This document shows, one piece after another, positions 36,723 through 39,641 of a stretch of 64,000 nucleotides of DNA (positions are counted from its first letter, which is position 1; each line of letters begins with the position of its first letter). The position numbers and the translations under genes were made by a program. Below the pieces are notes generated by a model that was not told the DNA's origin, did no database searches, and worked only from the letters and a program-made list of their open reading frames with translations. The DNA is from an uncultured delta proteobacterium. GTDB lineage: Bacteria; Desulfobacterota; Binatia; Binatales; Binataceae. Location: positions 1,757,748-1,821,747 of the forward strand of contig CAWDFL010000003.1 in NCBI GenBank assembly GCA_963801665.1, given 5' to 3'.

Positions 36723-38096
36723 TCACGACGCGGCCGCGTTCGCTTCGGTCTGCGCGGTCATCAGGCGCTGCGCGTATGGCATGATCGTCGCGAACAGATC
36801 GACCCGCGAATCGAGCGTCTTGCCCAGCCCCGACAGCAGGCCCATCACGCGGTTCACCAGCAGCACGTCGCCCGGAACCTCGACGATCGGATTGGCGCGC
36901 AGCGCGCGCGGCAGCTCGTCGTTGAATTTGTCGACCAGCTCCTTGTCCGCGTACGCCTTGTTGCGTGTGACCGTCTGTCCAAGGAAAAGATCGGCAACCG
37001 TCAGGAGCGTATCGGGCGAGCCGTCGCGGGTGCGGAAGCCGAGCTCGGTAAACGCGCGGATTGTCGCCGCGCGATCCGAGGTCAAGATCGCGAAGGTCAG
37101 GCGGACCATCCCGTCGCGGAACGCGGGCGGAAAATCCTTGGCCAATCCGAAATCCAGATAGACCAGGCGCGGACCGGGCTGGACCAGGATATTTCCCGGA
37201 TGCGGGTCCGCGTGAAAAAATCCGTCGCGCAGGATCATCGCGCAGAACTGGTCCATCAGCTTCTGCGCAACCGCGCGCTTGTCAATTCCGGCGCGTTCGA
37301 GCGCGGCAACGTCGGTGATCTTGATCCCCTCGATCAGCTCCATCGTCAGCACGCGGCGCGCGCTGAACTCGCGATAAATCTCCGGCACGCCGACCGCGGG
37401 ATCGCCGGCGAAGTTGCGCCGGATCGTGTCGGCATTGTCGGCCTCGTGGACAAAGTCCAGCTCCATCGGGATGTACTTCAGGCCCTCGCGCGCGACCACC
37501 TGCAGATCGAAATCGCGCTCGAGCCACGCGAGCCATTTGAGGACCAGCAGCAGGTTGCGAAGATCGGCGCGGACGATCCCCTCGATTCCCGGATACTGCA
37601 CCTTGACCGCGCATCGGCGCCCGTCATGCAGCCGCGCAGCGTGCACCTGCGCGAGCGAGGCCGACGCGATCGGCACCGGATCGAACTCGGCGTATGCGGA
37701 TTCGAGCGGGCGGCCGAGCTCGCGCTCGATCTGCTCGCGAATCACAGGGAACGGACGCGGCGGAACACGATCGTGCAGTCCAGCGAGAGTTGAAACCCAT
37801 TCGTCGGGCAGGACATCGGCGCGAGTCGCGATAAATTGCGAGGCCTTGATGAGCAGGCCTTCGAGCCGGATCGCGGTTGCGTACATCGCACGCGCAGCGC
37901 GCAAATCCTGGCGTCGATAGAGCGCGGCCTTGTTGCGCGCCGACACGAATCGGGTCCAGAGCTGCACCGATTTGTAGCCAACGTAAACCCGGGCTGCGAG
38001 CCAGACGACGTTTAAGAAGCGCCATGCTCGCGTCGCGAGGCCGGGCGCCGGGAGGTCTGGCGGAAATTCTATCCGGTCGATGCTGCTGGAGGTCAT
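36723..38096 (-). CDS. ABC1/UbiB-family atypical protein kinase
   Basis: ABC1 kinase-like domain (VAVKVQYPGI, HADPHPGNILV, DFG). Confidence 0.85.
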   Translation of the reverse strand: MTSSSIDRIEFPPDLPAPGLATRAWRFLNVVWLAARVYVGYKSVQLWTRFVSARNKAALYRRQDLRAARAMYATAIRLEGLLIKASQFIATRADVLPDEWVSTLAGLHDRVPPRPFPVIREQIERELGRPLESAYAEFDPVPIASASLAQVHAARLHDGRRCAVKVQYPGIEGIVRADLRNLLLVLKWLAWLERDFDLQVVAREGLKYIPMELDFVHEADNADTIRRNFAGDPAVGVPEIYREFSARRVLTMELIEGIKITDVAALERAGIDKRAVAQKLMDQFCAMILRDGFFHADPHPGNILVQPGPRLVYLDFGLAKDFPPAFRDGMVRLTFAILTSDRAATIRAFTELGFRTRDGSPDTLLTVADLFLGQTVTRNKAYADKELVDKFNDELPRALRANPIVEVPGDVLLVNRVMGLLSGLGKTLDSRVDLFATIMPYAQRLMTAQTEANAAAS

Positions 38097-38191
38097 GAAT
38101 TGAGCGGATGCGCCTGCGGTAACCGTTACTACTGTAGATGAAGAACCGCGGTCGTAGAACCATTTGATACGGTCGTGGAATTGGCGCCTGA

Positions 38192-38220
38192 TTGACGGCG
38201 GTCGGACCCCGCGATACTAT
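38192..38220 (+). promoter_or_regulatory. Sigma70-type promoter TTGACG-17-TACTAT
   Basis: Near-consensus hexamers with 17-bp spacer, about 120 nt upstream of an intrinsic terminator and 170 nt upstream of the MFS start. Confidence 0.5.
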
Positions 38221-38313
38221 GCGCGTCATGAAGCCAAGTAACGCAGTTCGCCTGGTCCCCAATTCAGGTCGTGTCCTCATGAATTGAGACGGACTCCGAT
38301 ACCTGGCTTTTAA

Positions 38314-38360
38314 AAGCCCCGCTGGTTTCGGAACCGGCGGGGCTTTTGTTTTTTTGTTTT
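38314..38360 (+). terminator. Intrinsic terminator/attenuator hairpin with long T tract
   Basis: aagccccgc-tggtttcggaacc-gcggggctt followed by ttgtttttttgtttttg. Confidence 0.7.
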
Positions 38361-38389
38361 TGTCGTTGGGTTTGTTTTGGAGGGGAGCG

Positions 38390-39641
38390 TTGCCAAGTTA
38401 CGACGCAAACGGCGCGGTACGCGGAATTACGCGGCGCTACTACGCGGTATGGCTAATCTACTCGCTGGCGGGTGGATTCCTGTTCGGCGTATACCCGATC
38501 TTCCTGCACTCGCGCGGACTCGACCAGTTCGAGATCAACAGCGTGCTGGCGGCGTACTTCGTTGTGCTGTTTTTGACCGATGTGCCGACGGGCGCATTCG
38601 CCGACGCTCTGGGCCGGCGCCGATCGTTCGTGCTCGGCACCGCGCTGCGCGCGTGCGCATTCGTGGTGTATTTCTTCGCGCGGCATTACTGGGTGTTCCT
38701 GATTGCCGAGAGTATCGACGGGATCGGCACCACCTTCGGCAACGGCGCGATCGACGCGTGGGGCGTCGATGCGCTCGACATGGCGGGATACGAAGGGCTG
38801 AAGGATCGCCTGTTTTCGCGCATCATGCAGCTCACCACGATTGGCTTCATGGTCTCGGCGATTTTCGGCGCGTATATCGCCGACATCAATATCGCGTGGC
38901 CGTGGCTGTGCGGCGCGGCGGGCTACGTGATCAGCGCGGCGATCGGATATTCGCTGATGACGGGCGAGAAACCGAATTCCGAGGGCGTCCATCTGCTCGC
39001 GATTCCCGGGATGATCGTGCGCCGGGTTATCAGCGGGTTCAGCGCGGGCTTCGACAGCAAAGTGGTCCTGATGCTTAGCGCAGCAGGCGCGATCCAGGTT
39101 GCGGCGTGGTCGCCGTACTGGCTCGAATGGCCGCTACTCGATGAACCAGAGCTACGGCGTCGGCGTCTGGATTATCGGATGGATATACTGCGCGCTGTCG
39201 GCGGCGCGGATGCTGGGCGCGGAGATCGTCTCGCGCACACGGCCCGATCAGTCAGCGCGCGCGGGGCGAATAGCGGCGCTGGTCGGCGTGGCGAGCGTGC
39301 TGCTCGCGGTGGCCGGGATGCTCCAGACCCGGCCGAATATTGTCCTGATGATTCTGTTCGTGATGAACATTTTCTCGGGCGCGACGCAGCCGCTCTTGCA
39401 GAGCTGGTTCAACGAGCAGGTTGAATCGGAGCAACGCGCAACGCTGCTATCGTTCAACAGCACCTTTGCGACTATGGGCGGTTCGGTCGGACTGATCGCC
39501 AACGGATTTATCGCCGACCGCGCCGGTCTGCCGGTAGCGTGGCAATTCGCCGGGCTGCTCTCGCTGCTGGCGATTCCTTGCTACCTCGCGCTGCGCACCG
39601 GCACCGGCGCGATCGAGATCGAGGCGCCGGCCGCGAAATAA
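38390..39641 (+). pseudogene. MFS transporter split by a +1 frameshift near 39110-39125 (pseudogene or sequencing error)
   Basis: N-terminal six TM helices in the frame of ORF 38354..39424 (TTG start at 38390 preceded by GGAGG), C-terminal six TM helices in ORF 39099..39641; junction ...PYWLEW / SMNQSYGVGVWII. Confidence 0.6.

Follow-up and report, generated by a model that had tools for sequence, protein, structure and literature searches.

A conserved leader with a short open reading frame as a candidate transcription attenuator of a DHA3-like MFS transporter gene in Binataceae

The divergent intergenic region flanked by an ABC1/UbiB-like kinase gene and a DHA3-like MFS transporter gene in an uncultured member of the Binataceae is probably a cis-acting, ribosome-dependent transcription attenuator whose action involves translation of a short leader ORF. 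For this region, referred to below as the leader, the points at which transcription starts and terminates are predicted from the sequence, as is the translation of its short ORF. The window is the whole 64,000-nt stretch of DNA that was analyzed, and all positions refer to it. The main features of the locus are as follows.

36723-38096, minus strand: gene for an ABC1/UbiB-like atypical kinase, the divergent neighbor (context, outside the leader)
38192-38197, plus strand: TTGACG, -35 hexamer of the leader promoter, positionally conserved across nearly all orthologous loci
38215-38220, plus strand: -10 hexamer TACTAT of the leader promoter, after a 17-nt spacer
38228-38287, plus strand: leader ORF of 19 codons and a stop (MKPSNAVRLVPNSGRVLMN, then stop), kept in every lineage
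38233-38252, plus strand: 5' strand of helix P1, within codons 2-9 of the leader ORF, pairing with 38288-38307, with compensatory changes at several pairs
38260-38266, plus strand: 5' strand of helix P2 (CAAUUCA), after an invariant GUCCC, pairing with 38280-38286
38280-38286, plus strand: 3' strand of P2 (UGAAUUG), whose last two bases are the UG of the stop codon UGA (38285-38287)
38288-38307, plus strand: 3' strand of P1 (GACGGACUCCGAUACCUGGC), directly after the stop codon
38295-38332, plus strand: candidate antiterminator in the window's clade (UCCGA/UCGGA, ACC/GGU, GGCUU/AAGCC)
38311-38362, plus strand: intrinsic terminator, a stem-loop at 38311-38348 with a covarying stem and a T-rich tract to about 38362
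38378-38382, plus strand: Shine-Dalgarno sequence GGAGG of the MFS gene
38390-39641, plus strand: DHA3-like MFS transporter gene, the putatively regulated gene, with a TTG start at 38390 and a 1-nt insertion at about 39140

The Binatota, here represented by the Binataceae, are abundant uncultured soil bacteria, and to our knowledge essentially nothing of their gene regulation has been described. The leader forms a well-defined, alignable cis-regulatory RNA family with more than 110 members and is a candidate for inclusion in RNA family databases. It provides sequence-level evidence for leaderless starts in Binataceae, located 6-9 nt past a TAnnnT box and downstream of a TTGACT -35 element, and offers a way to learn under which conditions these bacteria turn on a conserved DHA3-like transporter whose gene is paired with an ABC1 kinase-like gene. 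Should ribosome-targeting antibiotics be the trigger, the leader would exemplify inducible control of efflux in a phylum of environmental bacteria, beyond the usual models. The class of mechanism is already well known, and for a specialist the observation is useful rather than surprising.

Promoter and linkage to the transporter gene

Searches with nhmmer, BLAST, and a covariance model placed the leader directly upstream of the orthologous MFS gene in the window and in 62 of 80 Binataceae genome loci; in all of these, the covariance model identifies exactly one site per locus, on the same strand as the MFS gene. The model also matches all 50 metagenome contigs, which are the contigs recovered with the leader motif, and the MFS gene is the next downstream gene wherever the contig is long enough. 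Thus, conservation upstream of orthologous transporters, on which an earlier reading of the sequence alone had made its proposal depend, is observed in both collections. In total, more than 110 leader copies are located directly upstream of the same MFS gene and on the same strand, and no second copy was found elsewhere in the window or in 130 loci. Matches of the leader model on the minus strand correspond to the palindromic terminator.

The ABC1/UbiB-like gene is the divergent partner of the MFS gene at 62 of 80 loci. Since this gene, located 5' of the leader, is on the minus strand, the terminator is not needed by any upstream gene. Assignment of its product as a relative of MABP-1, a macrolide-binding ATPase (PMC8696161), was considered and rejected, as the match scores 121 bits against a cut-off of 800 and lies below the match of the same protein to UbiB; the resemblance is a lead, not evidence. 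For the MFS protein, the top NCBIfam matches are TIGR00900 (2A0121), Tet(40), and TetA(P), all under their cut-offs. The window's copy of the MFS gene is frameshifted by the 1-nt insertion. A scan of the window for tRNA and tmRNA genes found none.

The sigma70 promoter described by the sequence-only reading, TTGACG-17-TACTAT, is present at 38192-38220. Taken alone, the promoter match (9 of 12 positions) is not above chance, with two sites in 4 kb against 1.2 expected; its position is nonetheless kept at about 60 orthologous loci. A TTGAC(T/A/C) element is found 17 nt 5' of the -10 box in nearly all of the orthologous loci, and a TAnnnT box precedes the leader start codon by 6-9 nt (mostly 7) across lineages. 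At four loci (L097, L103, L116, and L119), the -10 box and the leader ATG are shifted together 6 nt upstream. In 61 of the 62 leader-bearing loci, 14-69 nt separate the terminator from the MFS start, with 104 nt in the remaining one (L063) and 41 nt in the window. The gap sequences that were inspected contain an SD-like element only and no promoter-like -10 box, so that the MFS gene would be reached by read-through only. Strict linkage to the MFS gene, covarying helices, and a gap without a promoter-like -10 box together bear out the cis-acting promoter-leader-terminator-gene unit that the sequence-only reading had suggested.

The leader ORF and the RNA fold

The earlier reading had assigned to the leader a 22-codon ORF (MRVMKPS...). 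The ATG of this ORF (38219-38221) lies inside the -10 hexamer, and hence the ORF would begin upstream of the transcription start of the same promoter; moreover, its first three codons are conserved only among the closest, near-identical relatives. Thus, this version was rejected, and the ORF is placed instead between ATG 38228 and TGA 38285-38287. As this ATG is located only 7 nt past the -10 box, the ORF is probably leaderless, with a predicted transcription start at about 38227/38228.

The position of the ORF is retained in all lineages. Its start follows the TAnnnT box at the above distance, and its stop lies 20-27 nt ahead of the terminator, which across the family consists of a 12-17-bp G+C-rich stem and a U-tract. 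The 98-sequence alignment contains 84 distinct leader sequences. In these, a credible translation start is provided by a predicted leaderless ATG (75 sequences) or GTG (9), the stop is TGA (78), TAG (5), or TAA (1) at the same place, and the ORF has 19 codons in 64 cases. Indels in the ORF are multiples of three and in frame, and the alternative frames are open in just 4 and 12 of 21 lineage representatives. A sister clade (L007-L013 and L028) has a 31-32-codon ORF that follows a short 5' UTR and keeps the same stop-to-terminator spacing; in two of its members (L009 and L012), the ORF is preceded by GAGAAA, resembling the motif before the MFS start of that clade.

The encoded peptides are wholly different between lineages. 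In the leader peptides, regulatory codons do not occur in runs, the lineages have no arrest motif in common, and no amino acid is enriched family-wide. Regulatory codons and arrest motifs define the amino-acid-sensing and arrest-peptide subtypes of attenuators, not general translation-stress sensors such as whiB7. The lack of relatedness of the peptides between lineages makes a functional micropeptide a disfavored candidate.

The same observations bear on the possibility that the leader is an independent small gene, that is, a stand-alone sRNA of about 125 nt and/or an mRNA for a 19-aa micropeptide, located upstream of the MFS gene by coincidence. Such a gene would account for the presence of its own promoter and strong terminator, the conserved ORF, and a terminated product predicted to be a stable rod-like RNA, and trans-acting RNAs and leader peptides derived from attenuators are known in other bacteria (PMC7968998, PMC7298713). 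However, it would not explain why position and strand are strictly tied to one gene at more than 110 loci, with no room for another MFS promoter and no further copy in the window or the loci, and the peptide, besides its divergence between lineages, is not hydrophobic in the window's clade. We consider this origin of the leader very unlikely.

The attenuator reading draws on the fold of the transcript as well. A long imperfect helix encloses the leader ORF, with the 5' half of the ORF in the 20-bp P1, where it is paired with the segment following the stop codon, and the 3' half in P2; the terminator begins three nucleotides past P1. The fold of the whole transcript has z = -5.7 relative to shuffled sequences, and the 5' domain without the terminator has z = -3.3 in the window and -4.0 in locus L036. 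In the alignment of 44 sequences, 91.9% of the cells are paired, compared with 30-46% with slid partners, and 14 compensatory pairs are observed; these values were reached by none of 500 shuffles. The larger alignment of 98 sequences yields 92.9% and 25 compensatory pairs. Compensatory changes are found both in P1 and in the terminator stem, which answers positively the earlier suggestion to look for covariation upstream of orthologous transporters. The bases of the 5' strand of P2 are invariant in the two main clades, with a few compensatory changes in divergent members.

Blocks of the leader such as GUCCCCAAUUCA, GGUCCUC(C/A)UGAAUUGAGACGGAC, and GAUAC show no variation at any of the three codon positions in comparisons of clades with only about 65% identity between their MFS proteins. 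Such conservation indicates that the RNA itself is constrained by more than simple helices, possibly by a ligand- or protein-binding site. Further, three invariant segments (38246-38252, 38255-38258, and 38273-38278) are each able to pair with GAGACGGAC. The invariant blocks are lost in L026, L033, L053, L058, L060, L063, and the L007 clade, all of which keep P1, the terminator, and the ORF at its usual distance from the terminator. Sequestration of the MFS Shine-Dalgarno sequence by the CCUCC block of the leader was considered and rejected, as the window has CCUCA at this place, and among the orthologues the SD regions vary and show no consistent complementarity.

A natural alternative explanation of the invariant blocks is a riboswitch-like or protein-binding RNA, in which the rod of P1 and P2, the unpaired GUCCC and GUCCUC, and the GAGACGGAC hub would form the binding site, occupancy would stabilize P1 and thereby set the terminator, and the ORF would be secondary or merely tolerated. 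The leader does contain a structured covarying domain, conserved unpaired nucleotides, and an expression platform, as expected for a novel riboswitch, and the same domain carries the conserved ORF. Conservation extending to synonymous positions, the alternative partners of the hub, and a covarying 5' domain followed directly by a terminator that the 3' strand of P1 abuts, which is the usual layout of OFF-riboswitches, are all in line with this explanation, as is a weak antiterminator (see below), common in riboswitch expression platforms. Against it stands the loss of the blocks in divergent members that preserve the remaining architecture, and a pure aptamer leaves unexplained the retention of the start and stop codons, the in-frame indels, and the joint migration of the -10 box and the ATG. 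The database comparison also is unfavorable: with Rfam 15, no family reached its gathering score anywhere in the window, and E-value scans of three divergent leaders (the window, L036, and L009) produced terminator-like sub-threshold matches only, far below any gathering score. The best of these, RF01772 rnk_pseudo, reaches 29.6 of the 55 bits required by its gathering score, and membership in this family was rejected, since the match rests on a generic terminator. The sequence-only reading had not matched the leader to a known riboswitch class, and the Rfam result rules such a class out. Overall, an RNA sensor in which the ORF plays no essential role seems unlikely. Among the three possibilities that the earlier reading had left side by side, the evidence supports the attenuator and speaks against a known riboswitch class (Rfam) and an independent sRNA (strict linkage to the MFS gene).

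A combined scenario is also conceivable, if quite improbable. Here, in a new class of sensor, a ligand- or protein-binding fold and the leaderless ORF would share the same approximately 80 nt, and termination would be set jointly by the passage of ribosomes and by a small molecule, which may be the substrate of the pump. The binding core would be composed of the invariant GUCCC, GUCCUC, GAGACGGAC, and GAUAC blocks.

Termination and the proposed mechanism

The terminator is located between the leader ORF and the MFS gene. In the window, its hairpin of 17 bp (nine G-C pairs) with a loop of 4 nt precedes TTTTTTTGTTTTTG; a GC-rich terminator hairpin ending a transcript of about 130 nt had been correctly recognized from the sequence alone. 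The same reading placed the TTG start of the MFS gene 30 nt after the terminator. Both the start and its GGAGG are indeed present, and the measured distance is 41 nt from the end of the stem and about 27 nt from the end of the T-rich tract. In many members of the family, the T-tract is interrupted (UUUUGCUUUU), and therefore partial read-through is expected. In one locus (L115), the stem of the homologous terminator is followed after 9 nt by an inserted group II intron.

Mutually exclusive structures are represented unequally in the family. P1, over codons 2-9, is well supported. The candidate antiterminator, in which the post-stop segment pairs with the 5' strand and loop of the terminator, has a predicted energy of -10 to -14 kcal/mol in the window's clade only, with a single compensatory change (A>G / U>C) in L047. 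The family-wide version is weak, with GGCU/AGCC and CGG/CCG pairings and about -5 kcal/mol. In the Binatus-type clade, the largest one, neither folding with the ORF masked, nor folding of the post-stop segment with the 5' half of the terminator, nor consensus folding revealed a strong antiterminator; in this clade, the pairing is limited to 4-7 bp, a 4-bp GGCU/AGCC hairpin plus CGG/CCG, and its energy of about -5 to -7 kcal/mol compares with roughly -25 to -30 kcal/mol for the terminator.

These energies, together with the interrupted T-tracts, would agree with a constitutive terminator that merely dampens expression of the MFS gene or insulates it from the divergent promoter region, with no conditional control. 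A plain insulator, however, does not account for a conserved ORF at fixed spacing, a covarying 20-bp P1, or the conserved blocks, and we regard this explanation as highly improbable.

The proposed attenuator would operate as follows. In the absence of a ribosome on the leader, or after its release, P1 would zip up, the terminator would form, and an RNA of about 125-130 nt would be released. A ribosome on the start codon or in the first half of the ORF would keep the 5' strand of P1 unavailable. The 3' strand of P1, thus freed, could pair with the 5' side of the terminator (in the window's clade, as the candidate antiterminator listed above), and RNA polymerase would read into the MFS gene. A ribosome at the stop codon would, judging from known ribosome footprints, cover the first 12 or so nt of the post-stop segment, so that the terminator would again be favored. 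In this scheme, the signal would be anything that slows ribosomes on the leader. The pump belongs to the DHA3-type (drug/H+ antiporter-like) MFS proteins, and by analogy our favored guess is a trigger that acts on the ribosome, either an antibiotic with this target or translation stress in general. In this proposal, stalling would induce the MFS gene; the opposite direction of control, with translation as the inducer, is equally compatible with the sequence.

Comparison with known attenuators

Among described RNA families, the leader resembles RF01772 rnk_pseudo in having a small 5' hairpin followed by a G+C-rich terminator hairpin with a U-tract; the taxon and the downstream gene are different. 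Further comparisons are with attenuators in which a ribosome on a short ORF controls the downstream RNA.

The leader shares with the trp, his, leu, and thr attenuators an arrangement of four segments of the 1:2 / 2:3 / 3:4 type. Segments 1 (AAGCC...) and 3 (AAAGCC...) are similar to each other, as are segments 2 (...GGCU) and 4 (GGGGCU...). The stop codon also is sited so that a terminating ribosome would cover the start of segment 2. Unlike these attenuators, the Binataceae leader has no tandem regulatory codons and precedes a transporter gene, not a biosynthetic operon, and the 2:3 pairing is just 4-7 bp in most members.

Another parallel is provided by the leaderless short-ORF attenuators of mycobacteria with their polycysteine sORFs (bioRxiv 10.1101/834739; PMC4633059). 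There, as proposed here, the transcript begins with AUG or GUG, the first cistron is a short unannotated ORF, and ribosome occupancy is proposed to remodel a downstream RNA duplex. However, the mycobacterial sORFs contain runs of Cys codons and unmask a ribosome-binding site, thus acting on translation, whereas the leader described here, from the phylum Binatota, has an intrinsic terminator and no codon run.

In the whiB7 leader of mycobacteria and Streptomyces, a uORF is combined with a Rho-independent terminator and an antiterminator, and slow translation of the uORF is proposed to permit read-through (PMC10274678). Both leaders have a short uORF followed by a Rho-independent terminator, and in both the uORF peptide varies between species; the response governed by the whiB7 leader is tied to drugs that act on the ribosome. 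The whiB7 leader is of much greater length and has a transcription factor as its target, whereas the Binataceae leader would control a pump, and the two have no relationship at the level of sequence or Rfam family. The Binataceae ORF further differs in starting at the predicted 5' end of the transcript and lying almost wholly within one long helix, and the antiterminator is weak in most members.

Finally, uORFs of vmlR, msrD, and toiL sense antibiotics (PMC9226507, PMC10314930, PMC12121999). The ORFs of vmlR, msrD/msrDL, ermC, and toiL are SD-led, and several encode defined arrest peptides, unlike the Binataceae family with no shared arrest motif. The order of elements is the same, from promoter to short ORF to terminator to a resistance or efflux gene; the putatively regulated protein in Binataceae belongs to the drug/H+ antiporter-like MFS group, and induction by ribosome stalling, known for these systems, is what we propose for the Binataceae leader.

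Layout and conservation of the leader

The leader lies in the divergent intergenic spacer (38097-38389) between the ABC1 gene on the minus strand and the MFS gene on the plus strand.

Features of the leader and its flanking genes
36723-38096, minus strand: ABC1/UbiB-like atypical kinase gene, the upstream neighbor
38192-38197, plus strand: -35 hexamer TTGACG, with a 17-nt spacer to the -10 hexamer (sequence)
38215-38220, plus strand: -10 hexamer TACTAT (sequence)
38228-38230 (ATG) to 38285-38287 (TGA), plus strand: 19-codon leader ORF MKPSNAVRLVPNSGRVLMN, starting 7 nt after the -10 box (alignment)
38233-38252 with 38288-38307, plus strand: P1, a long imperfect helix pairing the 5' half of the ORF with the 20 nt right after its stop
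38260-38266 (CAAUUCA) with 38280-38286 (UGAAUUG), plus strand: P2, inside P1, its 3' strand overlapping the stop codon
38311-38348, plus strand: terminator, a perfect 17-bp hairpin followed by a T-rich tract (sequence)
38378-38382, plus strand: GGAGG, the Shine-Dalgarno (SD) sequence of the MFS gene (sequence)
38390, plus strand: TTG start of the MFS gene (sequence)

The two hexamers with their 17-nt spacing, the terminator hairpin, the GGAGG, and the TTG start are all present, as the sequence-only reading had described. Because the upstream gene lies on the minus strand, the terminator cannot belong to it. The promoter match (9/12) is not significant alone: 4 kb of sequence contains two such sites, and chance would give 1.2. 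The predicted transcript 38227-38360 folds much better than shuffled sequences (z = -5.7), and the 5' domain without the terminator yields z = -3.3. The decisive evidence that the leader exceeds chance is comparative.

For the comparison, 80 loci encoding MFS orthologs were taken from species-representative genomes. BLAST and nhmmer searches with the window leader placed it directly upstream of the MFS gene in 50 of the 80. A covariance model built from 44 leaders recovered a single full-length copy from the window and from each of 62 loci, always on the MFS strand and just upstream of the MFS start. One further locus has no upstream sequence; the 17 loci without the leader encode the most distant orthologs (58-62% identity) and have no terminator between the ABC1 and MFS genes. 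Metagenome contigs were also searched for two invariant leader blocks, and the 50 contigs that matched all have the full element; the next gene is MFS wherever the contig reaches far enough, with a group II intron in between on one contig. The linkage of leader and transporter proposed for the window is kept across most of the orthologous loci.

The intron (L115:623-2403, minus strand, contig Ga0209039_10031014) lies between the leader terminator and the MFS gene and begins with GTGCG, 9 nt past the terminator stem. Its ORF encodes RVT_1 and GIIM domains, and the insertion matches Rfam RF02001 and RF01998. Intrinsic terminator hairpins are the targets of class C group II introns, so the insertion would be an independent recognition of the leader hairpin as a terminator. 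The loci that lack the leader (L062, L064-L074, and L076-L080) have a common motif, AGT(G/C)TAAA(n2)ATG...CAGAGAACAG, before the MFS gene, about 40-120 nt ahead of the aligned part of MFS and directly adjoining the divergent ABC1 gene. It may mark another way of starting or regulating the gene, with a protein extended at its N-terminus (for example, MAGTQRTGG...).

The downstream gene encodes an MFS transporter, as had been claimed. Its best family matches, TIGR00900 (2A0121), Tet(40), and TetA(P), all well under their cut-offs, place it among the DHA3-like drug/H+ antiporters, and its nearest database relatives are annotated as Candidatus Binataceae or Binatus. A single extra G at about 39140, not in a homopolymer, splits the window gene across two frames (the N-terminal part in the frame of 38390, the C-terminal part in that of 38391): the window has CTACTCGATGAAC, and four close relatives (L001, L002, L003, L085) have CTACTC-ATGAAC. 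This is either a fresh pseudogene in this genome or an assembly error. The ABC1 gene is a conserved divergent neighbor (window and 62 of 80 loci), whether the leader is present or absent. The mycobacterial gene Rv3197 adjoins whiB7. To its product, the macrolide-binding ATPase MABP-1 (PMC8696161, PMC6208485), the ABC1 protein has a weak, far sub-threshold similarity.

The leader ORF

The sequence-only reading had drawn a 22-codon ORF. Its ATG (38219-38221) overlaps the -10 hexamer and so cannot be on a transcript from that promoter; the conserved start is at 38228. Several independent features argue that an ORF at the new position is real. Among 84 aligned leaders, the start codon is ATG in 75 and GTG in nine, never another, and the stop codon at the same place is TGA in 78, TAG in five, and TAA in one. 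Insertions within the ORF come in multiples of three. Even where the nucleotide sequence can no longer be aligned, lineages keep a 15-21-codon ORF at the same place (for example, MSGTTVRIAVSAAAAI, MRSSGTRAAGKAAAPIG, MPDFVAAIRGANREFP, MPSFVAQLPRGKRGFSMR, and MMPTRCNKLTAAATAKAVC); of the two other frames, one is open in only 4 and the other in only 12 of 21 lineage representatives. The stop codon and the first base of the terminator stem are 20-27 nt apart in 59 of 62 genome loci and 23-25 nt apart in 79 of the 84 aligned leaders. Across the family, it is the existence and position of the ORF that are conserved; the peptide sequence is not.

In nearly all lineages, a TAnnnT box precedes the ORF start by 6-9 nt (mostly 7), the geometry of a leaderless mRNA. 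In four metagenomic leaders (L097, L103, L116, L119) two extra codons extend the 5' end of the ORF (MTSKPS...) and the -10 box is shifted upstream by 6 nt, with a 6-nt box-to-ATG distance retained; promoter and start codon have moved together. In a sister clade (L007-L013, L028; about 2780-2880 in each locus), the ORF runs for 31-32 codons and ends in ...SRGTGKFVAVVGAIAG, its C-terminal half being conserved. It follows a short 5' UTR and keeps the same stop-to-terminator spacing. In L009 and L012 the ORF is preceded by GAGAAA, resembling the motif before the MFS gene of this clade. The sister-clade ORF also contains an internal hairpin, CGGCAA-loop-UUGCCG, with a variable loop codon (TGT, TTC, TGC, TTT, GCA). 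In L117:364-507, a 13-nt tandem duplication (GGACATTGATACTT twice) in the P1 3' strand extends the stop-to-terminator distance to 39 nt; natural variation or an assembly error could account for it.

RNA structure and invariant blocks

The structure was tested on a 44-sequence MAFFT alignment with 38 pairs, 500 shuffles, and partners slid by 1-3 columns as a control. Standard pairs occupy 91.9% of cells, compared with 30-46% for slid partners; both sides change in 14 of the 38 pairs, and none of the 500 shuffles attains the observed pairing values. In 98 model-aligned leaders, the values are 92.9% paired and 25 compensatory pairs; this alignment leans towards the structure because it was fitted to the covariance model. 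The P1 3' strand starts right after the stop codon, and P1 is separated from the terminator by 3 nt. In the 5'-UTR clade, the P1 5' strand is found immediately before the start codon instead of immediately after it, and covaries with its partner (AGCCAC/GUGGCU in L009, GCCAUUA/UAAUGGC in L008). Hence, in every architecture a ribosome on or close to the start codon has the P1 5' strand within its footprint. Conserved linkage and covariation thus support the earlier cis-regulatory interpretation; the finding is real, with the ORF limits re-drawn to 38228-38287.

The two main clades, whose MFS proteins are only about 65% identical, share invariant segments, third codon positions included: GUCCCCAAUUCA, GGUCCUC(C/A)UGAAUUGAGACGGAC, and GAUAC(C/U)UGGCU. 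Three invariant segments can each pair with GAGACGGAC: 38246-38252 (part of P1), GUCC 38255-38258, and GUCCUC 38273-38278, the last in the hairpin that RNAalifold prefers. Three alternative partners for one segment are typical of RNAs passing through alternative folds. The case for a ligand or protein site in the leader is built mainly on this alternative pairing and the invariant blocks, but divergent members that lack the blocks retain the ORF, P1, and terminator.

Proposed mechanism and known systems

Sequence comparison establishes (i) the promoter geometry, (ii) the ORF with its spacing, and (iii) P1, P2, and the terminator with covariation. Terminator and MFS start are 14-69 nt apart in 61 of 62 loci, and the inspected sequences show nothing in this gap but an SD-like element, leaving no space for a distinct MFS promoter. 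The arrangement fits a 1:2 / 2:3 / 3:4 attenuator, the operating logic of which we infer as follows. Segment 1 would be the 5' half of the ORF, segment 2 the post-stop segment ending in GGCU, and segments 3 and 4 the two terminator halves; segment 3 starts with AAAGCC like segment 1, and segment 4 includes GGGGCU like segment 2. With no ribosome on the leader, 1:2 (P1) and 3:4 would form and transcription would stop. A ribosome held at the start or early codons would make segment 1 unavailable, leaving segment 2 free to pair with segment 3. Once at the stop codon, a ribosome would shield about 12 nt at the start of segment 2, as follows from established ribosome footprint sizes, and the terminator would again be favored.

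In the clade of the window, the 2:3 pairing (38295-38332) consists of UCCGA/UCGGA, ACC/GGU, and GGCUU/AAGCC (-10 to -14 kcal/mol), with a compensatory A>G / U>C change in L047, and the predicted alternative fold is substantial. The antiterminator is the one structural element that is not convincingly conserved, and the largest clade is the weak point of the attenuator model: no 2:3 pairing is conserved there except GGCU/AGCC plus CGG/CCG (about -5 to -7 kcal/mol). In that clade, control is either kinetic and modest or dependent on a further factor.

Runs of regulatory codons are absent from the leader peptides, which makes sensing of a particular amino acid unlikely. Purely by analogy, the pump family and precedents such as whiB7 (PMC10274678), vmlR (PMC9226507), msrD (PMC10314930), and toiL (PMC12121999) suggest that the signal may be ribosome-targeting antibiotics or general translation stress. 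Further precedents are leaderless sORF attenuators (bioRxiv 10.1101/834739; PMC4633059).

Nowhere in the 64-kb window does an Rfam 15 family attain its gathering score; the best sub-threshold match, rnk_pseudo (29.6 bits vs 55), rests on the generic terminator, and the Binatus-type and UTR-type leaders have no match either. Compared with the class of leader-peptide transcription attenuators, the leader has both the ORF and the terminator features, its mutually alternative structures are partly supported, and regulatory codons are absent. Most probably, it works like a member of this class, with a predicted dependence on translation; its particular trait appears to be a leaderless ORF almost wholly enclosed in one helix. 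The leader represents a new cis-regulatory family with many members, from a phylum that is uncultured, and its mechanism class is already known.
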